A stretch of 64,000 nucleotides of DNA, taken from positions 41,602,001 through 41,666,000 of the forward strand of contig NW_025964372.1 in assembly GCF_023055435.1 (NCBI RefSeq), in the 5' to 3' direction. The stretch's first letter is position 1. Every line of letters starts with the position of its first letter. The position numbers and the translations under genes were made by a program. The notes beneath the pieces were generated by a model. The model saw only the letters and a list, made by a program, of their open reading frames with translations, did not search any database and was not told where the DNA came from. Source of the stretch: Haliotis rufescens (lineage: Eukaryota). Positions 4,271 through 39,150 of this stretch are shown here, one piece after another.

Positions 4271-4311
<41 letters not shown>

Positions 4312-12100: not shown

Positions 12101-15100
12101 GCCTTGATATATTCATCGAGATGTGTATCATCGTTTAATGGGGTCATTCAATAAACGTATGTTTGGAGGAGATATCAAAGGAGCCGCCCAATATACACAG
12201 TGTCGTCCGGTGAACTACCACCCCACCCTGTCCATTAGAGTTATGTAATCGGTACACAAATATATTTGATGCGGTGTCAGTGCGGAAGGAGTTTGAATTA
12301 CGTCCGCCAGTTGCCACAGAAACAATATACAAGGTCAATCCGTACTAATTACCTAGTGACGCACGTAACAACGACTGTCAATAGGGAAAATGGTGAAAAC
12401 AAATTGAAATAGATTTTAATAAAACATTATTGTACTAAATAACTCGCAAAAGCGGTGCCTAAAATTGTTTGACCGTGTTATGTGTGTTGTAAACTGACGA
12501 ATAGCAAATAATTGTCATGCTGTACGCATGGTTCCATATACAAATTCAGTTATACAACCGGTATGAAACTGAGAACTGAGATACCAAGTACAACCTGCAT
12601 TCACACACGGAAGCAATATACTTGTGTGTATGCCCTCTCCTCTAAAAAATGTATCACTAAAGTATTTGCATTGTAATAAATATAGTAATGATAAAACTTG
12701 GTAATTTGGTAGGTCTCCGACAGATATGATTTTCAGTTTTTTTACACCTTTGATTGATACGGATTACGTACCTGTAGTCTAGTCACTGTCTCTAATGTAT
12801 CTGCTTGTTAGAAATTTCGAATGTCTTGTTATAGCACTGTTCCTAAAATACGGCAGTTTCTTTTATCGGGTATAAATAGTTGATTCGTCTTGTCACGCAG
12901 TCATTTTTACTTGATCGAATGATTTCCACAAAAAATTACGACAGAGAGTTTTGTATTTTATTATATTTTTAGAAGATTTTAGAAGATGCTTACATCACTG
13001 TATCTCAGAACGTAAAACTGATAACATTCAAACATGTAATTAGTACACAGTTAATTGTTACATATAATTTCCTGCATATTCCTTTTTGAACAAAAAGCCT
13101 ACATGTATACTGATATCGGTGTCCACTGTTAAAAGGGTATTAGTGCAGTCAGCCATGGTAAATGGAGAGACAATAATAAGGTGATTAATTATAGTCTGTT
13201 GCAGAATATGCGGTATAAGTGTAGTCATTGATACATATACACATTACACATATACAGATGAAATACACGATATGATGCAGTGCAAGAACAAATTAAGATA
13301 CGGTTTCTATTAAATATAATGATACGATTTTGGATTTAATTAGCATGTTTAAATTTTCAGGCCAACACGGCTGAGATACAGCATCGGCATACTCAACTGG
13401 AGTTGTTTTCTGCCGGTCGTAAGTTCATTGTTTGACTGAGCACTCTCGTGTCGGGGTTGCGATATTTTCTTCTCTTTGTTGGCAGCCTGCCACCGGTCTG
13501 AATTTTGAGAAAGGTCTCAGCATGGGACTGTTAATTACTTCTTAATGATGTCTACAAGCTTACAAACTTGTAGATGTTGGGTGCGGTTAGGACCAAACTT
13601 TTTCAGCTCAGAGTGTTAGTGGTCCTGGAACCCATTGTGTCAAACAGGTTCTGCACAAAACGTCCATCAGATTCTACTGTTCAGCAACATTGTCACTGAA
13701 TTTCAGAATTCTGGCATGATATAATAATCAAGGATTTCGAAGGTGAACGAGGGGAAAGGCAGACGCACGTGGATTTACCCTCAGGTTATTATTGTCTGGA
13801 GTTCACATTTTGGGGCATTTCATGTACTAATTGAACAGAGTTCACCTGCACATGTCCACTTTAGTGATACAGACTGTAACCAAAAATGCAATGAGCCGTA
13901 GCTCTTAATCCCTTATAACAACGGTAACAACAACCAGAGTGAGGACACAGTAAGGTTAAACCGTGTCCAACAGACAATCTGAGGTGGCTATCTCCCATCA
14001 AGTCAGCTCTGTTTTTAAGCGCATAGTTATGTTTTTACATATTGAAATAAAAGGAACAAACCTACACATTACCAAATACAAAACTTTATAACCCTCTCTA
14101 GACTTCGTTCCAATTAACCTAGATCATTCAACTCGCTCGCGATGGTCGTATGCGACTTTAAAGTGAATACGTCTACAGTGTACAAGTAACTTTTAACTGT
14201 ATCATATATACTCATGATAAGCAATTATTTTCGTTCCTAATTCGAATGAGCACATTCTGAGGCTAAATCTGCAAAAGGACAGATAAAATATTTCTTTGTA
14301 CAATGCAAACGATACAAACGTAGCGGCTGATAATAGAGACAATGATTTAATAATCTGCAATATATCAAGTGTTCTCGTTCAATCTATTGTACATATTGAA
14401 GTGATTGTAAAGTTTCAAGGAGTACTAAAATGTTGTGGTATTATGAATGTATTTAGAATATGAATAGCGAAAAACAGTAACCATATCGGATGTACATGTA
14501 TAACTTGTCTTCCAACACCACGCTTGTGCCGAGGCCCATGGTCATAAAACTAATCGGTCCCATAAAAGGAGCAAATAGTTTCGCAGATACTTCTTGCTAT
14601 GGTTCACTCACAATTGTCAGACGACCTAATCATCAGTCAGACCAGTCAAGTGTGACCAGCGTACCTGCCTGGTTTTGGCTCCTAATTACTGAACTGCCCA
14701 ATACTGTCATACTGTGGGCAGAGTAAGCGGCCTCGTTGAGTGATACAGACTAACCAGATTATGATTGTGTTTGTAAGTTGCGTTTAATCTGTGTCGGGTT
14801 GCAGTTGTTTTATTAGTCAAGACTAGGGGTAGTTTTTTCAATGAAACCTTTTAGCCGTTGAGTTTGTTTTGCATTCATTTCATTAAATACATTGTTAGGT
14901 AGAATAATAACACGTTATATGGATTAAACATCTCCCTAATCTGAGTATAATCTCACATGTACTCTAAGTACCGTACTATATTACTTTGCGGAGACACTGA
15001 GTATATTTGTTTAGTTGGCATTGTATGCTGTCTGATGACTTTACACAAATCCCTGCATTCAATAGACCCGTGAAGATCTTCAACAAACCATTCTTGGCGT

Positions 15101-18100
15101 AAAAGGGCGACAGTGCTTGTCGTAAGAAGCGACTACCGGGATCGGGTGGTCAGGCTCGCTGACTTGGTTGATGCATGGCATCGTATCCCAATTGCGTGGA
15201 TCGATGCACATGATGTCAATCACTGGATTGTCTGGTCCAGACTCGATTATTTACAGACCGCCGTCATACAGCTGAAATATTGCTAAGTGTGGCGTTATAC
15301 AACTAACAAACAAACAAAACACAAAAAGAGAAAGTGTATGAGTACTAAAACTTGCAATAGATATGCGTACCCTACGTACACACATGAGTCCCATTCGACA
15401 GTCTACAACACACGAATAACTGTCAAACAAGTTTGGGTACCCCTTCTGTTCAGGCAAGTAATTTGGTTCGATAATTTTGTATTAAAATCCTTTTCAATTT
15501 GTTTTCATCCTTTTTCCCTATTCCATGCATGTTTATGTTGCTACATCTTATTGCTCATGTTTCCAAGTATTGTAAAACACTTTAATGTTTCTCCTTCTTA
15601 ATCTAACGTTATAACATTTCCGGTCATTGCCATCATCTAATACACAAGAGATGATACCAAGACATATTTTATTCGGTTTTGTGGTCTATGCGGTCTTACA
15701 ATTGATTTTATAAGTCTTTAAATCTTATGTCTAGTAAATATTTTCACAAACAGGGCTGTTAACTGATATAAGGAATGTGACATCCAGTTGAGGACTGAAT
15801 ACGACGTACGTTAGTCTGGTAACGACATTTCTACAATAATTTTTTGAATAAACCGTTAATACGCCAGTTGTGACAGGGATGATGGTATGGTAGATGTAGC
15901 AGACATATTGACAGCCGTTGTTACGCGAGTCACTAGGTTATTAGTACGCATTGGCCTTGTTGATTGGTACTATACTTTCTGTGGCCACTAACGGACGTAA
16001 TTCAAACTCCTTCCACACTGACATCGCACCAAATATATTTGTGTACCGATTACATAACTCTTACTGACAGGGTAGGGTGGTAGTTCACGCGAAACGGACG
16101 ACACTGTGTATATTGAGCGGCTCCTTAGATATCGCCTCACAACATACTTTAAATGAATGACCAATTAAACGATGATACACATCAGGATCGCGGAGAAAAT
16201 ACAAGCTTCGTTCGCGTTGAATATATATATATCAAGGCACAAATTCATCTTTCATAAACTTTTTGTGTCTTGGTGCTTAATATATCCACATATCAACGAA
16301 AATATGTAATACATGTATCCACAAAAATATACATGTACAGGCTAGGTATTTGCCCACAGCAACACCTGCATAACTGTTTATTCACGCGTGGTGTGGCAGA
16401 TTGTAATTGACCGACAACAAGTATTGTAGAATCACCTGTAAATAAGGCCGACACTGTAATTAGACACAACGTACTAATGAGAATATGAGAATTATCATAA
16501 GAAGGCTGTTACGTTTTTCTTAACTATTACCATTTTCAAACCAAAAGTGACAATGCAGTTAAAAGTTGCTTTAGTGTCACAATATTCACTCCCGTTTTCC
16601 TCAATCGCATTGAAACATAATTCCCACTGGTCAGTTCGAAACCGCATGTAATTAAATAATTATTTCGAGATTTCGTTAGAATGTAAGATATTCAGCCAAA
16701 CGTTATGCAATAAAAGACGAATAGTTTCTTTCCATTAAAATACGCGCACGCGTACCTGTCACGTAATTGCACATTGGGATGTATCAACGGGTCATAAAAT
16801 GGGAAATGAAATAGAAACTAACTAAAATTTAATGTTGTACACGCACATGAATTCGTATGATAAACTGCCAAAACGTTTTGAGAGATAAGGCCGGGTTCAT
16901 TAAAGATGTTGGGTGCGGTTAGGACCAAACTTTTTCAGCTCACAGTGTTAGTGGTCCTGGAACCCATAGTGTCAAACAGGTTCTGCACAATACGTCCATC
17001 AGATTCTACTGTTCACCAACATTGTCACTGAATTTCAGAACTCTGGCATGATAGAATAATCAAGGATTTCGAAGGCAAAACCTTTGCTCGCCCATGGGCG
17101 AAATATTTCAATAAATCTGTAAAATAGCTGAATTGAGTAAAATTGAGTTACATTATGTGCCATGAAAATAGTAAGAACACCTGCATGTATTTGCGAAACA
17201 AAAACATAAGTTTTAAGTAAAGGAAAATATTCTCGCCCATGGGCCAAACCTTTTTCTCGCCCATGGGCGAAATATTTCAATATCGCTATAAAATCGTTGA
17301 ATTAAGTTAAAATGAGTTAAATTTTGTGTCATGGTACTTGAATAAGTACATTAAATGTATTTGCGAAACAAAATCATGAGTTTTAAGTAAAGGAACATAT
17401 ACTCGCCCATGGGCCAAACCTTTTTCTCGCCCATGGGCGAAATATTTCAATATCGCTATAAAATCGTTGAATTAAGTTAAAATGAGTTAAATTTTGTGTC
17501 ATGGTACTTGAATAAGTACAATAAATGTATTTGCAAAACAAAAACATGAGTTTTAAGTAAAAGAACATATTCTCGCCCATGGGCCTACCCATGGGCCTAC
17601 CCATGGGCGAAATATTTCAATATCGCTATAAAATAGTTGAATTAAGTTAAAATGAGTTAAATTTTGTGTCATGATACTTCAATAAATACATTTAATGTAT
17701 TTGCGAAACAAAATCATGAGTTTTAAGTAAAGGAACACATTCTCGCCCATGGGCCAAACCTTTTTCTCGCCCATGGGCGAAATATTTCAATATCGCTACA
17801 AAATCGTTGAATTAAGTTAAAATGAGTTAAATTTTGTGTCATGATACTTGAATGAATACATTAAATGTATTTGCGAAACAAAATCATGAGTTTTAAGTAA
17901 AGGAACATATTCTCGCCCATGGGCCTGCCCATGGGCCTACCCATGGGCCAGACTTCGCCCATGGGCAGGCCCATGGGCAACACTTCGCCCATGGGCAGGC
18001 CCATGGGCGACATAGTCTAAATATTGAGTTTTTAAACAATTTTTTTTTCATTTTTTCTTCCTTGGTATGTTCCCATGAAAACGGCATGTTTAATTTTGTA

Positions 18101-21100
18101 AATACCTTTAACCGAGACTGGGCAAAGAGCGTAGAGTTTCTGGACTTTTGGGTTTCCAGAATTAAAATGGGACGTGTTAGATTAATACAGCAACTTTTGG
18201 CGGTTTCTTCTTTTTGCACCAGTATTTGTTGACTATCAATTAATATATACTAGTGCTAATTATCAACTCATTGCCATGCATCTCGATTCTGCAATGATAA
18301 CACTACTCACCTGCAATGGGCAATGTGCACACAATCTAGTACATCATCAGTTCAAATGTCAGTCATTGCTAACAGCCGAGATATTCTCTTCATGATGGAT
18401 ATGTGATGTGCAGCGGATCCTGCTTTGATTTGAAACTACAAGCGTTCCTTTTGAAGCGAAAGCATTGGGCGATTAAACAGTATAATAAACATTCTAATAA
18501 ATGAACTCTTACCTGTCCAGATCATGGACACATACCTGCACCTCCTGGAGAGAGAGTGGTGTTCCCGTGTCAGCTTCCACTGTCTGGTGCTGCCTACAGA
18601 GACAATCCTACTGTGGGAGGCAGGACAGTACACAGACAGGATAAGGGGGAAAGATGTGAGTGATGTGAGATTTTTATATTTCTTATGATTCTGTCATTCC
18701 GAGTGTATCTTTGCATGTCCACCCTACCAAGAACAAGGTCAAGACTCGAAAGATATTTTGTAGTAGTTGTATATTTTTTGTGATAACATATGATTCGTCT
18801 ATGCCATGATTGCGTATTCAGTATGATAGTAATTGCCACTTGCAATTGTGCACATGATGGATTCATGTACTGCAATGTGTTTCGATTGAGTCAAAGCCAG
18901 TAACCCCATTGATCATAATGCTATTCGTTTTCAATATGCAGTTACAAAAGCAGATATTGCACATGAACATATTCATCTTGCTACATATTATCGTACGAAG
19001 TGAAAATCTGGTTGTCAGAGAGAGTTCTTTAGAAGTTCTCAGTACCAAGTCCATAATACCAATTCACTTATATCTCTGTTACTACACCATATCCATCTTA
19101 TGTGAAGCACGTGTTTTTGGATATATTGATCGTACACTGGAAAGGCATTTGCTGTGAACTTTCAGGAAACTTTGACAAACTACACGTGGATCTTAATGCC
19201 AGTGAACATGCCACGTAATCAACATTGGGTGCTACTGGTGGCTAATGTCAGGGATGGAACAGTGGGCGTGGTTAGTTCTAAACCCTCCTTAGATGTGGAG
19301 GACAAAGTTGTAGAACACTGGAGGTAGGTGGACAGAACAGTGGGCGTGGTCAATTCCTAACCCGCCTTAGATGTGGAAGACCTATTTTTAAACAACACTA
19401 GAGGTAGATACAAAAAAACACACCAAAAAACAGGACGTGTGGCTGCACATTATAAATGTTAAAACCAAGCTTTCCAATTTGAAATGTTGAAATGGTGATT
19501 TGTCAAAAACAAACATGAATGTAAATAAGATCCATCGATAAATTCTTGATACACTCACATTTGTAGCTTTTACTTTTGGGTAGAAGATATAGAACAACTT
19601 GTTCACAGGGTTACTCAGTTCCCCAAATGGGTACACTGTGGGAATTACTTAAACGCCATAAATACAGTTATGTCACTCATTCATTTAAACAATAACATCT
19701 GTATTTGCTAACATTAAACCTAATGATGGACAAAGCAGGAGAAAACATCAGAAATGCCATATAACTTGAAGCAGATATTAAAGGCACTACTGTATTTACC
19801 TTCTGCTTTACCTTTACTTTAACACCAGTCCACATGAGTCTAGGATGTTATCGCCATCGAGTAATAAACATGTATTCCTCAGGCTCTTTGTAAACCACTT
19901 GAAATCTACGTCTAAGGAAGGGAGCAAGTCATGGATGAAGAAACAGTACCCAGTGATAGAACAGTCTGATGGACACAGCTGTGGGATATTCGTTCTGATG
20001 GTAGGTTGGTTTGAAGCTATGTGTTTGATATGAAAGGCACATGTGTCTCAATAACCACGTATGAAAGATACCTTTTCATTTCTAACCTTCATATTCTCAG
20101 GCTGCTGATGCAATTTTGTCGGAGAAGTCCCCAGGCATCATGAGGAACTGTCACGTTGAGAAATACAGGCTGTATGTGCTTCAGAGGATACTACAGTATG
20201 CCAAGGACAAGGGAGATATGCAAGGTGGGGGAAATCACATGACGGCAGTTGATGGACAGGGTAATGTCCCAAACGAAATTCAAACTGTAACGCTGGAGAC
20301 AAGAGATGTACTGGAAAATAGCTGTACAATGACAACAGAACAAGGAGGTCCAACTATTCATGAAGAGGATGGACATGAAACACATGAAGGAACCGACTGT
20401 GCTGTCGCCAGTGATGAAAGTATGCATTCTGGAGATCATTACTATGTTACGTAATTGTAAGGCGTTACGCAAGGTATTATATTTTATATCCACATGTGCA
20501 ATGTCGACACTGCTTTCTTACAAACGTTATTTATTTTCACAGATACAGAGAACTATCCATGTTTGGATCAGCACCTGTTGCATAAGCAGGAGATGGCGTG
20601 CTTGTTAGTGGTTGCTTTGGCGGAGAATAACCTGGAGGAGAGGATGCTATGGGCAGGGTCTGACACAGGGACTCGCGTGGAAAGAGAAAACTACAAAAAA
20701 TATATTGTTTGGGCACTCAAGGTTTTTGACATCAATGAAGAAGAATACACTGAAAATGTGATGAAACCTATTTTATCCCAATTGGCGGGATGCTGTCTCC
20801 ATCATGAAGCAGGCTCATATAGAATAAGAAATCATGAAGTAGCAATAAAGCTAAGAGAAATACTGCTCAGTGATGTGAGACAGTTGGTTGAAAGGATGGA
20901 TATGGAGTTCATATTTCGTTATGTGACATCTAGCGGTGATCCAACCGAAGCGGAACTACTAGATGTGCCTTTTAAAATCGAATTGAAACATGATGATCTG
21001 CATATTATAGCGAAGCGGTGTGTTGCAGCTGTACATGGCAGAAAGTTTGCCTTTGTGTGCATGCATTCCCTATTCCAGGTAGAGACATTTGTTGATATGG

Positions 21101-24100
21101 TTTGGGAGAATCTCTTGCATAATCTGAACAAGGACAGATCTGAACTGTTGAAAGTATTGTCAAAAAATGACATTGTATATGGATATTCCTTTCTGTTTTG
21201 GGCGAGCGTCACAGACAACTCGAATTTACTGAGGAAAGCATTGAACAGTGTTCAGTTTACGGTAAAGAACAGACAGGAAGCTTTGTTTGGAAGTTGCTTT
21301 GGGAGTAGTTTGGCCAACTTCGAGTACTTGTGTTCCAAAAATAACTGGAAGTTGGATACGTTGTGTATGACGCTACCCGAACTCCCAAGACCTCTTATCA
21401 TCAAACTGCAGTTGGCAGTTGTAGATGATCTGAGAGTAAAGTTTGGTAAATGTTCACTTTTGGACATTGCCTGTATGGGTGGGTTGTCTTTGGTGGCTTC
21501 CAGACTGACACATTTGATGAAGACGAGCAAGACCAAGAACAGTTCAAGAAAAAATACATATGTACATTATGCAGCCATGTGTCAACAGGGCAAAGATATC
21601 ATGGATATAGTTATAAAGAAGGGACAACGTAGCATCAATAACATAGGTCCTGAAGGATCAACACCTTTACATTACGCATGTGCAGTTGGAAATGTTAGCA
21701 TTGTAAGCTATCTGTTACAGGAACGAGTGGACATTGGTGAGCAAAACGAGAATGGTAAAACTGGACTTCATTTGGCATGTATATATGGAAACGCAGAAGT
21801 TGTTAAAATGTTGTTACAGAACAAGGGAATAATTCATGTGACAGATAATGATGGCGGCACACCTCTACATCATGCAGCCTGGCAAGGACATAGGGAGGTT
21901 GTGGAGGTGTTATTACAGAACAAGGCCAATGTGGATGAGGGAGATAAGAAAGGCCGCACACCTCTACATGATGCAGCCTCCCAGGGACATAGGGAGGTTG
22001 TGGGGGTGTTATTGCAGAACAAGGCAAGTGTGGATGAGAAACATCAAGATGGCAGCACACCTCTACATCTTGCAGCCTACCAGGGACACAGGAAGGTTGT
22101 GGAGGTGTTATTACAGAAGAAGGCAAATGTGGATGAGAAAGATAAGGAAGGCTGCACACCTCTACATGATGCAGCCTACCAGGGACATAGGGAGGTTGTG
22201 GAGGTGTTATTACAGAAGAAGGCCAATGTGGATGAGAAAGATAAGGAAGGTTGCACACCTCTACATGATGCAGCCTTCCTGGGACATAAGGAGGTTGTGG
22301 AGCTGTTATTACAGAACAAGGCCAATGTGGATGAGAAAGATAAGGAAGGCCGCACACCTCTAAATCGTGCAGCCTGGCAGGGACATAGGGAGGTTGTGGA
22401 GGTGTTATTACAGAACAAGGCAAATGTGGATGAGAAACGTCAAGATGGCAGCACAACTCTACATCTTGCAGCCTCCCAGGGACATCGGATGGTTGTGGAG
22501 GTGTTATTACAGAACAAGGCAAATGTGGATGAGAAAGATAAGGAAGGTTGCACACCTCTACATCTTGCAGCCTACCAGGGACATAGGGAGGTTGTGGAGG
22601 TGTTATTACAGAACAAGGCAAATGTGCATGAGAAAGATAAGGAAGGCCGCACACCTCTACATCTTGCAGCTGACCAGGGACATAGGGAGGTTATGGAGGT
22701 GTTATTACGGAACAAGGCAAATGTGGATGAGAAACGTCAAGATGGCAGCACAACTCTACATCTTGCAGCTGACCAGGGACAACGGGAGGTTGTGGAGGTG
22801 TTATTACAGAACAAGGCAAATGTGCATGAGAAACGTCAAGATGGCAGCACACCTCTACATCTTGCAGCTTACCAGGGACACAGGGAGGTTGTGGAGGTGT
22901 TATTACAGAACAAGGCAAATGTGCATGAGAAACGTCAAGATGGCAGCACACCTCTACATCTTGCAGCCTACCAGGGACATAGGGAGGGTGTGTCGGTGTT
23001 ATTACAGATCAAGGCCAAGTGGATGAGAAAGATGATGAAGGATGCACACCTCTACATCGTGCAGCTGACCAGGGACACAGGGAGGTTGTGGAGGTGTTAT
23101 TTCAGAACAAGGCAAATGTGCATGAGCAACGTCAAGATGGCAGCACTCTACTACATCTTGCAGCCTACCAGGGACATAGGGAGGGTGTGGAGGTATAGAA
23201 CAAGGCAAATGTTGATGAGAAAGATAAGGAAGGCCGCACACCTCTAAATCGTGCAGCCTGGCAGGGACATCGGGTGGTTGTGGGGGTGTTGTTACAGAAC
23301 AAGGCAATTGTGGATGAAAAACGTCAAGATGGCAGCACACCTCTACATCGTGCAGCCGACCAGGGACATAGGGAGGTTGTGGAGGTGTTATTACAGAACA
23401 AGGCAAATGTGGATGAGAAAGATAAGGAAGGCGGCACACCTCTACATCATGCAGCCTGGCAGGGACATAGGGAGGTTGTGGGGGTGTTATTGAAGAACAA
23501 TGCAAATGTGGATGAGAAAGATAAGGAAGGCCGCACACCTCTACATGATGTAGCCAACCAGGGACATAGGGAGGTTCTGGAGGTGATATTACAGAACAAG
23601 GCAAATGTGGATGAGAAACGTCAAGATGGCAGCACACCTCTACATGATGCAGCCTGGTAGGGACATGGGGAGGTTGTGGAGGTGTTATTACAGAACAATG
23701 CAAATGTGGATGAGAAACGTCAAGATGGCAGCACACCTCTACATCGTGAAGCCCACCAGGGACATCGGGTGATTGAGGAGGTGTTATTACAGAACAAGGC
23801 AAATATGGATGAGAAACGTATGATGGCAGCACACCTCTACATGATGCAGCCAACCAGGGACATCGGGTGGTTGTGGAGGTGTTATTTCAGAACATGGCAA
23901 ATGTGAATGAGAAAGATAAGGAAGGCAGCACACCTCTACATGATGCAGCCCACGAGGGAAATAGGGAGGTTGTGGAGGTGTTATTACAGAACAATGCAAA
24001 TGTGGATGAGAAAGATAAGGAAGGCTGCACACCTCTACATGATGCAGCCAACCAGGGACATCGGGTGGTTGTGGAGGTGTTATTTCAGAACATGGCAAAT

Positions 24101-25892
24101 GTGAATGAGAAAGATAAGGAAGGCAGCACACCTCTACATGATGCAGCCCACGAGGGAAATAGGGAGGTTGTGGAGGTGTTATTACAGAACAATGCAAATG
24201 TGAATGAGAAAGATAAGGAAGGCTGCACACCTTTACATCTTGCAGCCTGGCAGGGACATAGGAAGGTTGTGGAGGTACACAGAACAAGGCAAATGTTTAT
24301 GAGAAAGACGATAAAGAAGAAACTGCTTTACAAAAAGCAGAGGCACAACATCACGATGATATTGCAAGGATTATAACTGAGGCAACAAATATACATGACC
24401 TGACAACCAACCATGGTACAATTATAGATAGGTAAGAGCAATTTGGAAATGATGCTTGAGTTGACAGCCCAAACACATATATTGTGTACGCTGTTTTGCA
24501 GAACAGTTTTGAAACCTCACGAAACCATATGAGACCTCGAAGAGGACAGTACCATCAGACATAAATCAAATATCTATTTCAGCTAAAAAATAATATGGAC
24601 AGTGCATTTCTACAAGGCCCCAGAAACAACATACTAAAAGTCCCAAATCAATCAATCAAATATGTCATGAGAGACCAACAGTGTATTGATATTCCATGTC
24701 TGTCCATGTCTTGGAGGTCATCTTGGATTTTTGGGCCAGTCAGTTAGTGTGACAAGTTTTATGCATATAAGTCCCAGCACACTGTTTCAGAGATAAAAGC
24801 TTCCACAGCCTAACCTCATATTTAGGAAATGTGTCGGCCATCTTGATGTTTTGTAGATTTGTCAATAGTCGAAAACGATCAATAGTTGTGAATATCTTTT
24901 TAGAAACGTAATATGGCTATTTTGCAACACAACACATGCTGTTTTTCATCAAATCATTGAACCTCATCTGAAATAAGGAAAATACTATTGACAGTCGGTT
25001 GCCATATTGGATTATGTAAATTAGACATATTTCCCAAACTTGGATTGCTTGGGACTTTAAGTATGTTGTTTAAGGGACCTTGTAGAAATGCATTGTGGTG
25101 AAATGAACTCTATCGCTATTTGTTTCAAGTGAAACCTTATTTTCTATGGGCTACATATGTCAATGGGGACTTTGCAAAAACACTGAAATTATGTTAACCA
25201 ATATTTGAACTTAATTAGGCTTCACTGTGTATAATATTGAATGATTCAGTGGTTTACGTTTATGAGTATGTGGGGCTTTCATTTAGTTTGGAGTCTTTTT
25301 CATTAGATACGAATTCGAAAGCGCTGGAGTCTTTTACATCTTGATTTTGTATTATATGTCACAATAGCATCACTATTTTGATAAAGTCCTATTTTCTCTG
25401 AAATGTTGTGTCAAGTGCATGTGGTATTGTTTCAGGGTGACAACCGATGGCCAGTTTCTTATGAAATCATCGTCAGTTCCACACGGAAGCTATAACAATG
25501 GCGGTTGGCTTACATCCACACCACCAACATCAACGTGCCCCGTGAACCACGCATCAATAGAATTGCCAGGGGTTTATGTTCCGAGTCAACTGGGACAAGC
25601 AGTTTCCACAGACAGACAAAGTGTTATTGAAGAGATCGCTTTGCAGTCATCCCAACCATATCATATAGACGGAAATCTTAACAACCTCCATACAGATCCT
25701 GCACGCATGGAGATACGTTCACCCAATCAAAGATCAGAAGCTATATATGGAAACTCAAGTCATGTTCCCACCTGTGTCCATGCTCCAGTAGTTGGTGACA
25801 CAGTGCCTAGTTCAGATACCACTAGTAATTCTGAGAATGTCATCATTCACTACACTGAGTCTGGGGAAAAGATAGAGCTGCAGCAGCTCTAA
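7963..25892 (+). CDS. Multi-exon chimeric gene: CG-1-like domain + Ulp1/C48-like protease + STAND-like helical region + ankyrin array (3' array disrupted; possibly a pseudogene)
   Basis: Phase-consistent GT-AG exons: 7963(or 7981)-8161, 8923-9992, 18521-18655, 19166-19323, 19883-20000, 20101-20419 (alternative donor 20260), 20543-24431, 25436-25892. Domain motifs run continuously across the junctions (MRE|DIWKDD; WLTDE|IMDTYL; KD|ETL; W|RLF; VLM|AAD; ID|RVT). Confidence 0.7.
9940..20200 (+). CDS. Ulp1/SENP (peptidase C48)-like domain split over five exons
   Basis: LETNEWLTDE|IMDTYLHLL..; WILMPVNMPRNQHWVLLVA (catalytic His); EQSDGHSCGIFVLM (oxyanion Gln, catalytic Cys); YRLYVLQRI helix. Confidence 0.85.
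10564..11228 (+). repeat. 170-bp subterminal tandem repeat, about 4 copies (left TIR)
   Basis: GGCCCATGGGCGAGAATATG at 10564, 10734, 10904 and 11074. Confidence 0.9.
11390..16907. repeat. Second, internal ~1-kb inverted repeat pair (11390-12383 / 15906-16907)
   Basis: ATCTTTAATGAACCCGGCC... is the reverse complement of ...GGCCGGGTTCATTAAAGAT; similarity continues inward to ACTGTCAATA / TATTGACAG. Confidence 0.9.
15064..15320 (+). mobile_element. SINE (family A) nested in the foldback spacer
   Basis: Shares its body with 40997-41215 and has an (AAAC)n tail. Confidence 0.8.
17085..17925 (-). repeat. 170-bp subterminal tandem repeat, about 5 copies (right TIR)
   Basis: Reverse complement of the 10564-11228 unit, with GCCCATGGGC palindromes. 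Confidence 0.9.
20543..24431 (+). CDS. Large exon: STAND-like helical region followed by ankyrin repeats
   Basis: ORF 20494-23247 and continuation ORFs carry GxTPLHxAAxQGHREVVEVLLQNKANVDEK repeats. Lesions: -1 at ~23019, TAG 23196, TAG 23658, -1 at ~23820, -4 at ~24277. C-cap EETALQKAEAQHHDDIARII. Confidence 0.9.
21850..24300 (+). repeat. 99-bp coding tandem repeat (about 25 ankyrin units)
   Basis: ACACCTCTACAT...GCAGCC...GGGACATAGGGAGGTTGTGGAGGTGTTATTACAGAACAAGGCAAATGTGGATGAGAAA recurs every 99 bp. Confidence 0.95.
24599..25097. mobile_element. MITE-like element in the last intron
   Basis: About 48-bp imperfect TIRs: ACAGTGCATTTCTACAAGG..AAGTCCCAA / TTGGGACTT..CCTTGTAGAAATGCATTGT. Confidence 0.65.
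25436..25892 (+). CDS. Terminal exon (S/T/P-rich tail) of the ankyrin gene
   Basis: The ttcAG|G phase-2 acceptor matches donor GATAG|gtaaga at 24431; open to TAA at 25892. Confidence 0.7.
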
Positions 25893-26879
25893 AAGTGGTC
25901 TAGAAAGGAGTTATCATTGTTAGTATGGTGTCCAGTGATACAGTATACATATACAGTTTTACAACCTCCTTTAGGAGTCAGTCGTCCGAATTTGGTTTGC
26001 AGAAAAAAACGAGTTATTTGTCACTTGTGTCGATGTAGCATTGATGTTTCGGTAAGCATATCAATTCCATAAAAGCAAACATTTTACTCTACAAATGCTA
26101 GGACCATAGCTAACTTCATGACGAAAAAATCCTTTATATTGCTTAGAGAATTACATAATAGATTCTTTCAAATGTTCCTAACTGGACATATGCGTATTTC
26201 AGTGTGAACCGAACTTTCCTTAGGCATTGTGTTAAGTTGAATCGAGTGAGTGTGTGAGTTGGATTTAACGCTGCTTTTAACAGTTTTCAAGTTATATCAC
26301 GGCGTGACAGCTTAATGTGGGAGGAAAGCCCGAAGTGATGGAGGTCTCAGACGTTTACCATTTCGGTGATTTGTGTCAATGTAGTTTTAACGTTTCTGTT
26401 CCCATCTCGATTCCATAAAAAACGCATTGTACGTTACAAAATCTAGGAACATGGCTAACTTTCATGTTTAGAAGATTACATAACAGTTTCTTTCAAATGT
26501 TTATAACTGAACATATGCAGATTTCAGTGTGTTCCAAACTTTCTTAAAGCAAAGTATTTTGTTGAAATTAGTGGGAGTGAGTTCAGATTGACGTACACAA
26601 TGAATGTTTGCAGCTACATGTCGCTGTGTAAAATATGTACTTGCAGGAACACGTGGGTGTCTTTCTATCATAGTCGGTATTGTCACTTTGATTTGTTTCT
26701 GCACCATTTCCAGTGTCAGAGTTGTGAAGTCTCACTCCCAAAACGAAGCCATAAAACCTGTTGCAATATAGACTTTAAAGTACGTTCACGGGGACCTCAT
26801 ATTCAGGAACATAATGACTGTTTTTGTAAAACGATTCGTCGTGAAGCATCACTTTAGATTAGACTGTAGCTAAATATGG

Positions 26880-27210
26880 TGTACACAGTTTTATTTATAT
26901 TCAATGTATTATCCTTCTTTCAAATATCTTATAAACACAAACTGCAAGTCTGAGAAGAATGTGGCTATTTTTGCTGTTCATTAACTGTACAAATTTTCTT
27001 CGTGATGGATACGTATAATAATAGTTAGGCAGGTATTTGATTCTTATATCCTCATATACTGGAAATATCAATAAAACATGGTATTCATTTTCTTGGTTAT
27101 ATTTGCAGAAAGGACACATCGATGTTAAAACATCATTATCTTTGGAGTGTCTGTATAATTGTATATTGAGGGTATGTATACCACACCTGAACTTCGTTAA
27201 GCATCTGCGT
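26880..27210 (-). mobile_element. LINE ORF2 3' fragment (CR1/L2-group C-terminal zinc finger)
   Basis: CPFCKYNQENEYHVLLIFPVYEDIRIKYL; copy at about 48730-49075. Confidence 0.75.
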
Positions 27211-27483
27211 AAAGGGAGAGAGTATCTGCCCAGTGACGTTAAAATATGGTGCTCTTGTTACCCCGCCTGGCGCTCAGCATTAAGGGGATAAGACTGGTCA
27301 ATTTGTGGTCAGTATATTGTGTCAGAGTGGGGTATTCATGTTAAAACTTCGGTATGGTGTATCAGTGGCTTGTTCTGTAAAAACGACATGAGCAGACACA
27401 CATACATATATACACACGCGTGCATGCACGTTACTTCATATAAGAGCAGAATTCTTGAACGCAACGTCAAACCTGCAGATTTT

Positions 27484-27766
27484 CGGGGTACGGTGGCCCA
27501 GTCGTCTAGGGCGCCGCCTTTTGCTGTGTAGAGTTGCGTCCCTTGGGCACGCCAGACACCTGTGATCCTGGGTTCGAATCCCGGTTTGCCCAGATTATGT
27601 TTCTAGGTTTGTCAGCACCATACCCGTCCTCTTGGGTTTCACCGAAGCGGTAAACGTCTGAGACCTGCATCACTTCGGGCTTTCCTCTCACATTAAGCTG
27701 ACACGCCGTGATATAACTGTAATACTGTTAAAAGCAGCGTTGAACCCAACTCACTCACTCACACAC
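27484..27766 (+). mobile_element. tRNA-derived SINE (family B)
   Basis: A box GGTGGCCCAGTCG, B box GGTTCGAATCC, (CACT)n tail. Copies at 49351-49634 (+), 46537-46818 (-) and partial 26243-26368 (-). Confidence 0.75.
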
Positions 27767-29297
27767 TCTGGAGATTTAATTAGAAAGGAAATTAGATTCA
27801 GCCCCACTCACACCCGATATTGACGAAACATGGTGATTGTCCCTTGCCGATCTCAAATTATCAAGATTTCATTTCAATTACATGTTATCGCAAGCTGTAC
27901 TACCAACGCCGTTACAAACATTATCCTGTCAACAAAGTCAATTGTAGACAATGTCAGGGATAGATAGGGTTTAATAATGCATACCACGTTTACAGTAGCT
28001 GGTCAAAGGGAGGCAACTCTGTTTTCAGATATTACGTTAGCATTTGAAAAGTACGGAAGTTATCCTGACGAGACCTGGATACTGTGGGTAAAATGCTTAC
28101 AGGCGTATTGTCAATAGAAGCATCACCTGTAGCTGCTCGTACTGGGCTAAAATGACTTTGTTTTCTGAATGTGGCAAATGTACGTAATAATGACGAAAGG
28201 TATAATGAAATGAAATGCACTGATTTTTAAACGGCTTTAAATGTTGTGTTTTGTGTTGAACTCATTTTCCAAAATGGAAATAGTATTTTCCTGTTTTAAA
28301 TCATACCATGAAGCAAATTTGTTCTTCATTTCATGTACATGAAACTTTGATCTTTTGATCACCACAACCATTGTACCTGTAACCTATTGTTCAGGTTGTG
28401 TGAAAGGGAGAGAAAACGTTTACGCTTACTTATGCTATTTCTGGTGATATAAACAGAGGGACGGTTTGAATATTTGAAACGATGTACAATATGAAGGTTG
28501 TATAGCACTGGGATCGAATTACGAATTACGAAAATGTTCTGATTACTTGAATAATCAGTTTTTTATTCAATTCAATTTAGAAAGTTTGTGAATTTCTGAG
28601 TAATTTATCATTATCACTGCGAGGTGGAGGTATTTGAATTCGTCAGAGATGTTTGTATGGATAAGAGCGACAAAACCCTTTGCATAATCACAAGAAATCT
28701 CTGTAGAAAGCCGACTCCATTTTACGATTCTGACTTTATTAAAAGCATCACTATGAACTTTCATTATTTCCGGGACATATTTCCCATGAAAGCCCCAATC
28801 CGTAGCATTCTAAACTTAATAAATATACAACGCCAGAGAATAACCAGTCTTGATTATCTACCGAAACACATTCCATTGGGCGCATAAGGCAAAATGGGGG
28901 GGGGAAACTATAGGAATGGATAACTGATAATCACTGATGACACCACGTCTTGTGAAAGTGCACGCATGTCCTGCCCAACCGGTAGGAGTCGCCATTGGTA
29001 CAATCTGACTCCACGTGTAGGAGCCGCCATTGGTACAATCTGACTCCACGTGTTCTTAGGGTAAACTTGCAAATGCAGAAAACACAAAGAAACTGTAATT
29101 TGATAAATATATTTATTTTCCAAACATGATGACTGATGATATGACCCTGTTTACTGATTGCTGTATAGTAGACCTGAGATTACAATATTTCGGAACAAGG
29201 TAAAAACGTATGGTCGAAATGATAAAAACACAGTTTGTTTTCATATTTATATAATATTTCTTCTACCAAGGTGCAATTACACTGACAAGGAGGATCG

Positions 29298-30454
29298 TCA
29301 CTGCAGGATGTTGAGAATGTCCTCCCATTCGATCGTGCATCTCTCTTTACATGTCCATAGTGCTTTGACCAGGTCCAGATAGGTGGCCGAATTTCCATTC
29401 CACTGCTTCCATTTAGTGAGCATAATCAAGATCTGCATATACATTGAACATGGGTGTGCAACTCTGCCCTGTTGGATAGCCACAACGCTGAGCCCAAGTT
29501 CAATCCCGACGTGCTCAAATCCATTCCCGACATGTCTCGCAACAAGGCCGAGATCTCGTGGAGTTACAGGAGTCTTCAGTCTCTCGTTCACACAGCGTTT
29601 TGAACCTACACAGAAATCTGTATTACTTGATGTAACACCAATTCTACCACAAAGGCTCACATAAACAGGTTTCTTTCTGTTTTGTGTGATTGACATGTGG
29701 TATCGAATTAACCTTTATTCATCTCCAATGCTCACCGATATTCCAAATAAGCAATACAAATTGACAGAAAAAAAAGTTGCACAAATCGTCCCATATACAT
29801 ATTTGTCATCATAATAACGATCAAAATATGTTGAAAGTTATGCTGAACACATATGGCATATATTACCAAATTTCTGAAATGAAATCATCAAATCATGATA
29901 AAGAATGTCGCACAAAATTATCAATTTAATGGGCAGTTATAATTTAACGCACCTCTGCTTATGATCTGTTCGATCAGCCCGTTGCTTGACTGGTGCATTC
30001 TCTAGAACGAAAATCATACACAATCAATTGTGTGTTGAGATGATATGCTGTAGTATTTCCTGAAAGGCGTTGAATTCAAATACCGTATTATTCTTCAGGT
30101 GGGATGAAACTTCCACACTATAACACTTTATATGGAATGATAAACTTCCACACAATAACACTTAATATGGAATGATAAACTTCCACACTATAACACTTAA
30201 TATGGAATGATAAACTTCCACACAATAATACTGAATATGGAATGATAAACAGAGACAATGTCTGCCGGAACAGGAGTGAGTATATAAAGACTTTGAACAG
30301 TATTTTCGTTACCTTATATCCACTATTAAGCATACAGAAATTATGTGTACATATATTACTACCATTAGTGTACCTTAATGAACAGATCTAAAAGGGCGTT
30401 ATTAAGACGTACCTGATACTGAAGTCCGGAGAAGCACGAGGCAATATTCCCCAT
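29298..30454 (-). CDS. Myristoylated death-domain-only protein A1 (CRADD/RAIDD-like DD)
   Basis: Exons 30454-30413 (MGNIASCFSGLQYQ), 30001-29953 (RMHQSSNGLIEQIISR), 29605-29298 (GSKR..LGLVARHVGNGFEHVGIELGL..HP..ML.KWK..NG.SAT..L..AL); intron phases 0 and 1, GT-AG. Confidence 0.85.
30105..30250. repeat. About 35-bp minisatellite x4 in A1 intron 1
   Basis: AAACTTCCACACTATAACACTTAATATGGAATGAT; only about 2 units in copy B (51977-52050). Confidence 0.8.
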
Positions 30455-30547
30455 GCTGCCTATACATATATGACACTGACGTACACCACTCTGTGTGTTC
30501 AACTGGTATGACTAAATCAAAAACTCTAGGCTATATGTGAGCACTGC

Positions 30548-30640
30548 GGGATGCCCCGGCACGAGAGGGGACACAACGTCTCACTCTCTCTCGCAATAGC
30601 TTCAACCAAAGATTTAGGAATTTCGGATTTTCGGATTTCA
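30548..30640 (-). promoter_or_regulatory. kB-like site GGGGCATCCC and (TCCGAAAA)2 motif upstream of A1
   Basis: 30548-30557 matches GGGRNWYYCC on the - strand; TTTCGGATTTTCGGATTTC at 30621-30639. Confidence 0.5.
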
Positions 30641-31229
30641 AAACTGATATAAAGGCGGAGTTTGGCAAAATGGTGTGTATGTGAAAGAGATTATAATAGA
30701 CCTATGTGGGGGGTTATACCTCTTATCGTGCATTTTAAGTTTGTTGTCACACACTATGACCAACAATAATAAAGAAATAACATCACAGCAGTGTCGATAA
30801 TTGACGTGTGGTCACAAAAGGAACCTGCGGTTCAGTATGCCGCTCACACATGTAGATAAGAGCAGTGAAGTTGTCACTGCTCTCTTATCTACATGTGTAA
30901 GCGGCAGCCTAAAAACTGAAAGAACAAGACCATAGAATGGATCAGAACTTGATGTTAGACGTGTCAGCAATACGAAAATGTCAATGATTGGACTATAATC
31001 ATGATTGGATCTTCTTCAGCTGTAGTCAAGTCGTCCACACGGACAGACGGACACACTATCATACCTCTTCCAAATGTCCACTGCAAGGTCCACGTATCAT
31101 GAATTTTGTTGACAATAATTTCACATACATTCTAATTGTTGACTTTCTACGCCTTGTAAAACATCTTTCAAACGCAGGTAATGTGATGATCAACAACATT
31201 TCTATTAACAGTTCGTTCGTTACATCCAT

Positions 31230-32765
31230 TTCAGTTTCCGGAATTTCAGATTGCGAATGACAGAAGAACCCAATTAGTTATCACTTGCACATTCTTCCGC
31301 GTGAGGGGCGGTAGGGTAGTCCAGTGGTTATAATGTTCGCTCGTCACGCCTAAGACCCGGGTTCGAATCCTCACATGGGTTCAATGTGTGAAGCCCATTT
31401 CTGGTGCCCACCGCAGTGATATTGCTAAAATATTGCTAAAAGCCTTCACTCATTCTCTCTTCCCCGTGTTCATATGAGGCAGAGTGACTAGTCGTTTCGA
31501 AGGACGGATGGATAATTAGCAATTGCTCAACTATAATGTCTCTCTGGGATGATAATTGTAATAATGTGGTCTCCAGCTAGAGCTGCACTACAGCGTTTCT
31601 ATTGCTCTTGATATGTAGAATATCTGTGAAACAACTGAACATGTATGTTAAGCTAGGGCAGATAAAATGTGTAGCTCTGAAGCCCAGATGACAGTAAATC
31701 ATGCATGCTGACGGTATCTTATATAATTAGTGTGAAACGTAGCATGCAGAAAATGTAATCTTCGATTCGCTGATGTTATTATTCAGTCGCTCAGGAAAGA
31801 TAAATTTCGTTGCACAGACCAAACCTAAGCACCCACCCATCGTCAGCTACACAGAATTATAATTCTACTACATTTGTTACATGTAGGTTACAGTCAACGT
31901 CGCATATCATATCACACACGAGGTGAAGAAACGATATATATATCCTGTTACTATATATGACATTTGTTCCTTTCTCAATACCAGTTTATCATCAGTTGGT
32001 GTGTGGCATTGTAAAGGAATGACATTTGGAAACACACGTACTTGACCTCATGGAATACAATTCTTCAATTACGTCATCTTTAAATAAAACCCGTTCTGTA
32101 ATTGGAATAGATCTCGACTTAACGCATGTCATAAGCATGTGCTCAATGTGTTCAACTTCAGTGAAAGCAAAAGAAAACGCTGAACACAAATGAAATCATT
32201 GTACCGCTCTGTGCCGGTCACTGGTGGTTAATATGAAAGGATGGGTTATCTTTCGTGCCAATTCTCGGGAAAGAACAAAAGACTCAAACACATTCCTTGG
32301 TGTGTGGAACTCAAAGGTTGTATACTTGTAAACATTTTTGATAGCCGTTAATATATAACAGTAATCGCATCTTTACCAGTCTTTCACATGTACAAACATC
32401 AACAATATTGAGAAAGTCCTGCATTCACATATACATGTGCACACATTGAACACATTCATGCACTGGAAACATATGATGCAACCCCTGACGTCCCTCTCTG
32501 ATCCCAGCACATCCTTACCTTATGCTCGTATTATCAGCATACTACACGTAGGTCACCAAACATTGTATTCCTGACACCACCGTAGCGTCATGTCTTTACA
32601 TATAATAGTTCCTTGTATGTCCCACGACACTTAACATGCATGACACGAAGTATGACCCTTATATGTGTCACACTGTGATGGCCGTCTCTTTCACATGCAC
32701 TGCAGTTGATAAAGGAGGCCTACCCGATATCTAAATCCTGACAAGCATGATCTAATATTCCCCAT
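31230..32765 (-). pseudogene. Relic DD-family gene with intact myristoylation exon
   Basis: Exon 32765-32724 reads MGNIRSCLSGFRYR|gt. Exon 2 (~32268-32208) has lost its acceptor and has a TGA. A very decayed DD (IVEQ..HPS; KNxQVIT.WVLL) is interrupted by a SINE. Confidence 0.6.
31305..31457 (+). mobile_element. tRNA-derived SINE (family C) with 11-bp TSD
   Basis: A box TAGTCCAGTGG, B box GGTTCGAATCC; TCTTCC(G/C)CGTG at 31293-31303 and 31458-31468; copy at 53508-53679. Confidence 0.8.
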
Positions 32766-34305
32766 GATCATTTTCCCATCTTCGAATCCGCAGCGTGTGA
32801 TATTGTGACACAGCTAACACAATGTAGCCAGCCCAGTTTATACATGCATACCTGATGGGGGGGGACTCCCTTGTACAATTTACCGGCACACTGTAAATCT
32901 CAGACGTATGTAATCAACAAATTACTGTCATTTCTCTAAATCACGGACTTCGGATTTCCGGATTTTCGGCTATGAATCGCCATGTCATTCAGTTACATAG
33001 TTGTCACAACAGGGGGGATATGTTTTCATTCATACTCAGTGGTTATAGGCTGCTTATCAAATCTTCTCAATGTCAACACCACGTGGAGTAAGCTGTCTAC
33101 TTCAGACGCCGTAAAAGCGTGTTTGATCATAGTATTGAGACGAGAGAAGCCATATTATTACCAATAAAACTCGTATATATGATTTGTTTCTTTTGTATAT
33201 ATGTGTGATGAGGTTTTATTTTACTCGAAAAGCGTAAATTCGTGTGGGATAACACACAATATGTTGATGTTGAGCAGTATATCAATCAATATAAGTTATG
33301 GTGTATCAATTAATTGTCTCCTATCATGGGAATCCGGTAAAGTGGACAGGCACACTGACACGTATGCAGGATTTCTGCACTTTCCTCACTTTCTCCAGTA
33401 ATAATGATGATATTAGTGTTAGATTGTCAGATGTTTTCCTGTCGTTTCCGGAGTGAATGAACTTTTCAATTTCATTCGAAAATATGACGCAATTTTGCAT
33501 ACTCTCACTGCAGATACTAATCTATCTATCGAACTAGGGACTATTCTGGTTTGTCTGAAATGGGGGTTGTCTGTGGGCACTACGCAATAAAACGAAACGA
33601 AACGAAACACACTTCGGGCAGCTATATGGCAGATAGTTCATGCAAGATGTGAACAAGACAATCCGACAATCCGACATAGCATATGACGTTTCGTTTGTTT
33701 GTCAAAATCAGTTCATAACACTGTGGTTGAGACAAGCAGTTAGTTCTAGGTAGGATACGGACCTCATGTTATACTACTCATCAGGCATTTAGTACAGGCT
33801 GCCCCCTGAGGTATATATGAAAACTAAGTGGTATTAAATGTAATGGAGATGAAGGAAACTCCCTTACAAACAACATGAAGGTTTATCTGAAAGCATACGA
33901 CGCCGTTGGGTTCGGATGACACCAACACAGCTGAATGACCAACTCTGACCACCTGATTCGCTCCAGTCAGCTCTTGCAGCAATCATAGGATACTGGTGCC
34001 TTATTCATCACCGGATTATACACAGGGCAGATGTAATGTAGTATAATCACATGATCATCATCAGTAGCATAAGCTGGGACGCTTGAAACTACTATCAGAC
34101 TGCCAGTAACACCACGTAGACTAACATAGACTCAAACATCCATATGTGCAATGTATAAATGAACAAAAAACCCTGTAGTTTTAAAAAGCAACATTTATTC
34201 GTGAAACATAAGGAAATATCAAACATGTACGTTATTCTTAACATATACTAGAGCAGTGAGTCGACAGTGTTGTTGTTATTTTAGGTGTGCACTACGAATG
34301 ACACA

Positions 34306-35429
34306 CTAAGTCGATGGTGATTGGAGAATGTTTAGTATGGCATCCATTTCGAGCGTACATCTACCTCTGCATCTCCACAACGCTCTGACGAGCACAAGGC
34401 CAGTGGCAGATCTGCCATTCCTCTCCTTCCACTTGGTGAGCATGTGTAAGGTCTGCATATAAAGTGAAGTTGGGTGTGAAACTTTGCCTTGTTCGATCAC
34501 CACAAGATTGAGTCCAAGTTCGATTCCAATAGATTCAAACCCGATCCCAATATGATTTGCCACCAGGCTGACACCTTTCTGAGAAACAGGGATTCTCAGT
34601 CTTTCCTCATTTACAGGGCCTACAAAACAAATTAACATCACGTTTTATGATTTAAAAAATGTGAATGAAAATTATAGATGAGTTTGCGTTTTGAGTAATT
34701 TTGTTTTTGTCTTTTCAAACTTACATTTTAACAAACACCTTACAAATCAGAACAGATACGGAAAGTATGTTGCGAGACATAGTACATCTTAATATATGCA
34801 GAGGAGAATACATATTCTCTCCACGTCTACAGTATAGCATATGTGTACTTAAGATATTATGCGACGTTCATATTGCATATTTAACATAATCAAATTGATC
34901 AAGATGAAAAGGACATATTCAATGACATTAAATAAACGAACCTGTCAATGTGACCAATGGATTATATGAACGGATCATCTGGTTGTGTGGCTGGTGAAGT
35001 CTCTGGAAGGGAGATGTTTATACCATCACATGTCATGTATAAAATTAAATGTTGCAAGCTTATGTCATANNNNNNNNNNNNNNNNNNNNNNNNNNNNNNN
35101 NNNNNNNNNNNNNNNNNNNNNNNNNNNNNNNNNNNNNNNNNNNNNNNNNNNNNNNNNNNNNNNNNNNNNNNNNNNNNNNNNNNNNNNNNNNNNNNNNNNN
35201 NNNNNNNNNNNNNNNNNNNNNNNNNNNNNNNNNNNNNNNNNNNNNNNNNNNNNNNNNNNNNNNNNNNNNNNNNNNNNACACACACACAGAAATAAAGACA
35301 GACTGTATAAGACCATGCAACCACAAACGTGCACATCGACATGCAAACAATGAGCTCGTTAGTTTCTAATAATTAAAGTTCACCTACCCGATACCCAAAT
35401 CCGGACCAGCATGACACATAATTCCCCAT
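34306..35429 (-). CDS. Myristoylated death-domain-only protein A2
   Basis: Exons 35429-35388 (MGNYVSCWSGFGYR), 35002-34942 (RLHQPHNQMIRSYNPLVTLT), 34619-34306 (GPVNEERL..DD..QSPST). Intron 1 contains an N-gap. Confidence 0.85.
35070..35277. other. Assembly gap
   Basis: Run of N. Confidence 0.99.
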
Positions 35430-35492
35430 TGTCGGCTCTGTACATACGTTTTACCCTCTGCTTTACTGATCTGCTGTCCGTTCAATCGCTTG

Positions 35493-35526
35493 CTCTTTAT
35501 ATGTAGGCTTTGTGAAGGGGATTTCC
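35493..35526 (-). promoter_or_regulatory. TATA box (ATATAAAG) and kB site (GGGGATTTCC, 35517-35526) upstream of A2
   Basis: Consensus match at a position conserved across paralogues. Confidence 0.55.
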
Positions 35527-35745
35527 CTAAACTTGTCGACAAAAATTACTGTTGCAGATAAGCGGCCGCGAGTTTATCGACGGGCGTTTATTGAAGCAAG
35601 ACGCGAGAACGCGAGGTCTTTCCCAGGGTGTAGCATCTAAGAAGACTGAGAGGTAATGCATGCTATACATCATAAATCCGAAAATCCGACTTGTTGTACA
35701 TTCACTTCACAATGTCAACTAGTTAGCGGAAACGTCTTTAGGCTG

Positions 35746-35961
35746 NNNNNNNNNNNNNNNNNNNNNNNNNNNNNNNNNNNNNNNNNNNNNNNNNNNNNNN
35801 NNNNNNNNNNNNNNNNNNNNNNNNNNNNNNNNNNNNNNNNNNNNNNNNNNNNNNNNNNNNNNNNNNNNNNNNNNNNNNNNNNNNNNNNNNNNNNNNNNNN
35901 NNNNNNNNNNNNNNNNNNNNNNNNNNNNNNNNNNNNNNNNNNNNNNNNNNNNNNNNNNNNN
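35746..35961. other. Assembly gap
   Basis: Run of N. Confidence 0.99.
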
Positions 35962-38900: not shown

Positions 38901-39150
38901 GCCTGTCAAAGTGATTTTCAATTCTATCCCATACTATGACCTTTACAGGGAGATTTCACACCTCCTTACTCACTTACTTAAATGGATCGGGTGGTCATGT
39001 TTTTTGACTTGGTTGACAGCGTGAAGTGGTAACCCGACGACGTGAATCATTGCTCATGATAGTGATCCCTGGATTCTTTGGTCGAGACTCGATGCTTTAC
39101 AGGCCACCGTGATATGTCAGGAGTATTGCTGGTGGCGGCATTTGGCAACA
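35962..39150. repeat. Local tandem duplication (35962-37206 vs 37757-39146)
   Basis: AGCTCA(G/A)TGGGATATAACAACATAGC through the SINE-A fragment ending GGCATTTGGC occurs twice, separated by an N-gap. Confidence 0.8.
37207..37410. other. Assembly gap
   Basis: Run of N. Confidence 0.99.

Follow-up and report, generated by a model that had tools for sequence, protein, structure and literature searches.

We analysed 64,000 nucleotides of the Haliotis rufescens contig NW_025964372.1 (assembly GCF_023055435.1, positions 41,602,001-41,666,000, forward strand; hereafter, the window), which contain a tandem array of ankyrin repeats. Tandem-repeat detection places the array at 21809-24308, with a period of 99 bp, 25.4 copies and 86% matches. 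On balance, we lean towards the view that the array forms the tail of a multi-copy abalone gene, shuffled by recombination, variable mostly on its binding face and likely selected, in a sensor with a predicted CG-1-like and Ulp1 head, and that the window copy of this gene is broken as assembled and likely decaying.

Structure of the gene and transcription of its family

The gene lies on the plus strand and corresponds exon for exon to the RefSeq model P0008 (XP_048245845.1, H. rufescens), which maps to 7963-25889 with one unmatched junction residue and skips the array. The original prediction had read the array alone, missing the CG-1-like and Ulp1 exons upstream; since the RefSeq model hides the array, genes of this kind escape annotation-based surveys. 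Coding exon 1 (7963-8161, an exact match to P0008 residues 1-66) encodes the start of the CG-1-like domain, and exon 2 (8923-9992; residues 67-423) encodes its remainder, two basic motifs, which we take from their pattern to resemble nuclear localization signals, a linker, a helical region and the start of the C48 domain. The end of exon 2 appears in RNA contigs as loose ends ahead of 18521. Exons 3-5 (18521-18655, 19166-19323 and 19883-20000) carry the Ulp1/Peptidase_C48 domain with its His, Gln and Cys, as seen from P0008, RNA contigs and the alignment with yeast Ulp1 (1EUV), and exon 6 (20101-20419; P0008 and RNA contigs) carries the C48 end and an acidic linker. Exon 7 starts with a helical region, possibly including a winged helix, followed by degenerate ankyrin-like helices (20543-21642, with relatives only in Haliotis), continues with two divergent ankyrin repeats (21643-21840) and 25 high-identity units of 99 bp (21841-24308), most variable at positions 1-3, 5, 10 and 13, and ends with a C-cap repeat (24283-24431; P0008 residues 1125-1175). 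The last exon (25436-25892; residues 1176-1326), covered by RNA-type contigs, encodes a low-complexity tail.

Four sequencing runs were taken as probable RNA by guess; their contigs cover exons only and are joined at GT..AG sites, as expected of transcripts. In these contigs, the C48 exons are connected to the ankyrin exon through four GT..AG joints, each of them seen in three or all four of the runs, while the C-cap is joined to the last exon in one of two runs (X19). The family is thus transcribed with this architecture, although the contigs are 90-99% alike and not assignable to the window copy. All four runs also contain contigs that share only a piece of C48 (19181-19272) and then diverge; these probably represent the divergent subfamily. 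In the RefSeq isoform P0018, as in P0017 of a paralog, the C48 exon is spliced straight to the last exon (20000 to 25436), which is then read in a different frame; the predicted product consists of the head and has no ankyrins. Most units of the array contain weak donor-like and acceptor-like motifs about 12 nt apart (34 and 21 matches within 21841-24308), which could allow in-frame unit skipping or merely mislead gene predictors.

A SUMO-type protease activity is predicted for the head. Peptidase_C48 scores 41.9-47.6 bits (Pfam cut-off 20.7) in all seven full-length relatives, and in the alignment to yeast Ulp1 (E = 0.0035) the catalytic His and Cys and the oxyanion Gln are kept. Two observations weigh against the predicted CG-1-like and Ulp1 head: the Asp of the Ulp1 triad is absent, the residue being Asn in paralogs and Ser in the window copy, and the CG-1 domain of this subfamily scores 19.7-23.0 bits against a cut-off of 23.5 (E from 7e-4 to 7e-5). 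The relative P0020 exceeds this cut-off with 30.9 bits.

The pre-ankyrin region of exon 7 has no Pfam match, and its relatives, 83-92% identical, are confined to Haliotis. A search of 1.84 billion representatives yielded four matches, three from Haliotis and one of low complexity (E = 6e-4). The structure model of this region consists of helices plus a hairpin at a low confidence (pLDDT 45), and a fold search with this low-confidence model gave no match. Atlas leads for 20545-21225 that score below 0.9 include clusters of WHD_GPIID and nSTAND4, and there was no hhalign match to the one NACHT-ANK protein compared. A winged helix in front of ankyrin repeats is reminiscent of STAND NTPases, and by this resemblance the helical region may be a winged-helix remnant of a STAND protein; if so, the gene would be the tail of a protein similar to NOD-like receptors (NLRs), with the NTPase replaced.

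At least 16 models on three H. rufescens scaffolds belong to the subfamily, a number that may include fragments and haplotype duplicates. In H. cracherodii, two genes (P0001 and P0009; XP_071097649 and XP_071097650) are open throughout and have 24 and 31 units, compared with 25 in the window copy. A second subfamily (P0020, P0022 and P0034), about 50% identical in C48, combines the same head with another kind of ankyrin array and lacks the helical region; its ankyrin consensus agrees with that of the window at only 14 of 33 positions. There is also an ankyrin-less relative of the head (P0021 and P0031), 1248 residues long in both species, with the catalytic Cys changed to Ser; it is a conserved and, judging from its sequence, probably inactive paralog. 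A fragment is present in H. rubra.

Variation, recombination and probable selection among the units

Positions within a unit are given in the numbering of designed ankyrin repeat proteins (DARPins). The mean pairwise identity of the 25 units is 86.5% at the nucleotide level (range 75.6-99.0), so that their earlier description as almost identical was overstated; at the amino acid level, the mean is 0.72, compared with 0.72-0.83 in paralog arrays. Alignment of the units reproduced the residue sets first listed for the PLH-x and AA-x motifs and the turn. Codon 13 has seven residues (W/S/Y/F/D/N/H), codon 10 has four (H/D/L/R in 2, 9, 9 and 5 units), codon 5 has four (G/R/S/C), and the turn block at positions 1-3 exists in two versions, DKE and RQD. 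Of all pairwise differences, 46% fall in these six codons, and of the non-synonymous ones, 53%. The variation is therefore indeed concentrated and non-synonymous at the places originally pointed out, although positions 18, 27 and 31 vary too, to a lesser degree. Synonymous variants are absent at codons 5 and 10. The non-synonymous diversity (piN) is 0.444 at codons 5, 10 and 13 and 0.079 at the other 27 codons, while the unit-wide synonymous diversity (piS) is 0.125. Read errors as a source of the variants were rejected, because paralogs in the assembly of another species show the same residues. Variation falls on these positions in 116 paralog units as well, none of which is identical to any of the 25 window units.

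Recombination within units is clear. Among informative site pairs, 181 of 435 are incompatible, and the incompatible fraction climbs with distance, being 0.23 for pairs up to 15 nt apart and 0.82 for those more than 75 nt apart. The pairwise homoplasy index (PHI) test gives p <= 1e-4, and with codons 5, 10 and 13 removed p is still 0.0001-0.0004. Units far apart in the array are no less alike than neighbouring ones, in line with repeated shuffling. The proposal that variants occur in shuffled combinations thus held: 21 of the 25 contact haplotypes are distinct. So did that of a duplicated 198-bp dimer, whose copies at 23841 and 24039 differ by two mismatches in 198.

Estimates of the ratio of non-synonymous to synonymous rates (dN/dS, or omega) were confined to the window units, and paralogs were compared as proteins. 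The codon models M1a and M2a were applied in our own implementation to the 25 units. Twice the log-likelihood difference (2dL) in favour of M2a was 27.1, with omega of 5.8 at 9% of sites and posteriors of 1.0 for codons 13 and 10 and 0.88 for codon 5. Recombination by itself inflates this statistic: in neutral simulations with recombination, 2dL reached 5.99 in 24 of 38 runs and 27.1 in two of 38. The effective p is therefore about 0.05 instead of the nominal 1e-6, and overall selection is only suggestive. In simulations without a tree, with omega equal to 1 everywhere (nine settings, 1000 runs each), seven residues at any one codon arose in 0-7 of 1000 runs. A CpG hotspot is an unlikely cause, as a five-fold CpG rate left the simulations unchanged.

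The position of the variable codons provides a further line of evidence. Papers are cited here by PubMed Central identifier. The positions randomised in the ANK-N5C library form one binding surface (PMC4308713). In an exact test we compared the six randomised positions (2, 3, 5, 10, 13 and 33) with the rest of 13 naturally variable ankyrin positions. The mean entropy in the window units is 1.59 at the six positions and 0.49 at the others (p = 1/1716), and the same test gives p = 7/1716 for the 116 paralog units and p = 9/1716 for the second subfamily, in which only register-safe units with 33-residue spacing on both sides were used (n = 25). The agreement is partly generic, because the library was built on the naturally most variable positions; the likeness to a DARPin library thus stands as far as the same positions vary, and is less specific than first proposed.

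The main competitor of selection is neutral concerted evolution, in which a minisatellite is homogenised by unequal crossover, the fold is kept by purifying selection and the tolerant surface drifts without any ligand acting on it. Much of what weighs against the selective reading favours this one: omega over the whole unit is 1.03, with 78% of sites at omega = 1; the likelihood ratio is inflated as described above; and positions 2, 3, 5, 10 and 13 are the most variable in ordinary ankyrins as well (PMC4308713), so that tolerance alone predicts variation at the same places. Moreover, the observed piN of the top three codons was attained in 20-152 of 1000 neutral simulations, and paralogs of the window's own subfamily share alleles by descent and hence are not independent. 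Relaxed selection is general on young repeats (PMC5120217), and of 12 H. rufescens models with an ankyrin exon, only two extend to the C-cap, one of which does so by leaving out the array. Drift of a tolerant surface should, however, also affect the other naturally variable positions (12, 14, 16, 22, 25, 26 and 30), whose piN is 0-0.09, below piS, whereas piN at codons 5, 10 and 13 is 3.6 times the unit-wide piS. It is this contrast that argues for selection. The rarity of seven residues, as at codon 13, in neutral simulations and the recurrence of the variable-position pattern in the second subfamily speak against neutrality too, and we regard it as possible but on the whole not probable. Thus, diversifying selection at codon 13 is well supported, and at codons 5 and 10, with recombination allowed for, it is suggestive.

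Lesions and surroundings of the window copy

Because of five lesions, the array of the window copy is not one open reading frame. As assembled, the in-frame stretch covers the first 12 or so high-identity units, and the lesions follow on the plus strand: a 1-bp loss with a frameshift at 23018/19, a 6-bp loss with a TAG stop at 23196-98, a TAG stop at 23658-60, a 1-bp loss with a frameshift near 23820, and a net 4-bp loss near 24275-82. The frameshifted tail (23019-23247) runs to a premature stop, giving a product of about 1567 residues as assembled. A premature stop upstream of the last exon junction triggers nonsense-mediated decay; by this rule, the capless transcript of about 12 units would be a target, its stop lying more than 1 kb before that junction.

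The lesions could instead be assembly errors or the result of a chimeric collapse, with the gene intact in the animal, which would concern the window copy and not the family. Misassembly is a known problem of high-identity repeats (PMC12222747). Most H. rufescens models are partial, in contrast to the two H. cracherodii genes with their open frames, and a contig of run X5, possibly from a paralog, has four extra letters at the last lesion. On the other hand, read-supported stops have been found in such arrays (PMC12222747), and three of the lesions are not single-base slips: they include a C>T nonsense change, and the 6-bp and 4-bp losses share one junction at the same position of the unit. 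Core-framework deviations are more frequent after the first frameshift than in intact relatives (13/178 and 24/742, p = 0.019), although the contrast within the copy, 13/178 after and 5/168 before the frameshift, is not significant (p = 0.09) and weighs against decay. Finally, the third triad position, outside the repeat, is Ser in the window copy and Asn in the paralogs and RNA contigs (all four RNA-type runs have the Asn base at 19275). Assembly error is therefore unlikely in our estimate, and for the lesions as assembled real decay appears the more likely. The scarcity of H. rufescens models reaching the C-cap may reflect birth and death of gene copies, or trouble with the assembly.

Several features surround the coding exons. 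Intron 2 contains a foldback-like element of about 8 kb (10364-18179) with long inverted arms of 170-bp tandem units (10560-11227 and 17074-17925) and a nested pair of arms (11485-12383 against 15906-16838). Upstream, a frame fragment at 4232-5005 has weak Pfam matches to retroelement RNase H and zf-RVT. Downstream lies a tandem segmental duplication of about 22 kb (26810-43700 and 48669-63500), about 92-95% identical over the longest blocks and less so toward its end. Its minus strand bears six exons that resemble death domains, located near 29.4, 34.4, 40.5, 51.3, 56.6 and 60.9 kb. Four of the five exons scanned reach the Pfam Death cut-off. These exons, downstream and on the opposite strand, are a weak hint of an immune neighbourhood.

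Proposed function and comparison with known systems

If the array is a selected sensor, as we favour, the following mechanism can be proposed. Diversifying selection would keep point mutations at codons 5, 10 and 13 and in the turn, and unequal crossover or gene conversion would re-deal these variants while homogenising the framework. The protein would be nuclear, judging from the CG-1 domain and the two basic motifs; its array would bind a rapidly evolving protein of foreign or selfish origin, and from this target or from nearby chromatin the head would strip SUMO or a different ubiquitin-like modifier. Gene copies would be born and lost quickly, the window copy yielding a capless product of about 12 units. 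The proposal of a recombination-diversified recognition module in an animal thus stands with regard to the animal (here abalone) origin, the recombination of units and the concentration of variation on the binding face, while recognition itself is a putative role suggested by sequence.

The same observations could be accommodated, with a rather low probability, by a regulator in conflict over chromatin or transposons, in the manner of PRDM9 or KRAB-ZNF proteins, and not by a defence against pathogens; its transposon-derived head, DNA-binding and deSUMOylating, would be retargeted by the array against selfish-element or germ-line proteins. Ulp1 domains are a common transposon cargo, carried by Mutator and Ginger transposons of invertebrates (PMC2836005), and nuclear PRDM9 shows the same array dynamics (PMC5120217); exon 2 has the motifs resembling nuclear localization signals, and in the Pfam scan of relatives, NOD, TIR and death domains were all absent. 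Yet no relative scanned has a transposase domain, known ankyrin faces bind proteins, the gene adjoins the tandem death-domain exons, and abalone ankyrin expansions have been loosely tied to defence (PMC12627906, PMC5405107). In the broadest version, which we offer tentatively and hold to be unlikely as a whole, these genes would be NLR-like nuclear receptors without a NOD: a transposon-derived CG-1/Ulp1 head would have been joined, possibly twice independently, to arrays re-dealt each generation, making a heritable deSUMOylase repertoire against foreign or selfish nuclear proteins.

Were the head an active, retargetable deSUMOylase, it would provide a concrete function for part of the unexplained abalone ankyrin expansion (PMC12627906) and would be a molluscan form of diversified recognition inside the cell. 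Ankyrin tails do occur on immune proteins of invertebrates (PMC8195603), and the excerpts on abalone ankyrin expansions (PMC12627906, PMC5405107) report them without this architecture. Our search found no published description of the CG-1/Ulp1/ANK family, subscription papers and supplements (e.g. the domain tables of PMC12627906, in which these genes may appear) being outside it; nor did it confirm a link between CG-1, WRKY-GCM1 and transposases. The "CG-1" of PMC9815663 is a strain name, not a domain.

The closest known counterparts of the array are the ankyrin repeats of high internal conservation (HiC) in fungal NLRs, such as Podospora Pa_3_8560 (Dyrka et al. 2014, PMC4986451). Both consist of high-identity recombining repeats that differ in number, both vary on the inner helix and beta-hairpin, and both have broken alleles or paralogs. 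In the fungi, repeat number is polymorphic among individuals, whereas in abalone the differences are known from paralogs (25, 24 and 31 units). The HiC criterion is 85% over 100 residues by T-REKS (PMC4986451); the abalone values, 86.5% for nucleotides and 0.72 for amino acids, are pairwise identities, a different measure. Unlike the fungal proteins, the abalone gene belongs to an animal and has a CG-1-like and Ulp1 head in place of NACHT or NB-ARC, neither of which has a Pfam match at E <= 1 in the seven full-length relatives.

With ANK-N5C (PMC4308713) and DARPins (PMC8683736), the array shares a fixed framework and variable positions 2, 3, 5, 10 and 13. It differs from these designed proteins in its almost invariant position 33, in variation at positions 1 and 18, in having only 4-7 residues per site, mostly one base away from a central codon, and in its 24-31 units.

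In CAMTA proteins, the order of domains is CG-1, TIG, ANK and IQ. The abalone gene similarly combines a predicted CG-1-like domain with ankyrin repeats in one chain, but has an inserted C48 domain and a long, young and variable array; TIG and IQ have no Pfam match at E <= 1 in the relatives scanned. Mutator and Ginger transposons bearing Ulp1 (PMC2836005) resemble it as another lineage-expanded Ulp1/C48 in invertebrates, whereas the abalone domain is fused to ankyrins and lacks a transposase: DDE transposases have no Pfam match in the seven relatives, and no terminal inverted repeats were found around the gene, where old ones could escape detection, the only long inverted repeats being in intron 2 or downstream. 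Lacking a NOD, TIG and IQ domains, and a transposase, the gene is neither an NLR, a CAMTA nor a transposon, respectively.

The PRDM9 zinc-finger array (PMC5120217) is similar in being a minisatellite-like array with selection (in abalone, likely selection) on contact codons, attached to an enzymatic head (in abalone, a predicted one) in an animal, although the abalone array consists of ankyrins rather than zinc fingers and the gene is multi-copy. The array dynamics themselves are hence already known from fungal NLRs and PRDM9; the new and apparently undescribed part is the combination, in abalone, of one CG-1-like and Ulp1 head with two different hypervariable ankyrin arrays.

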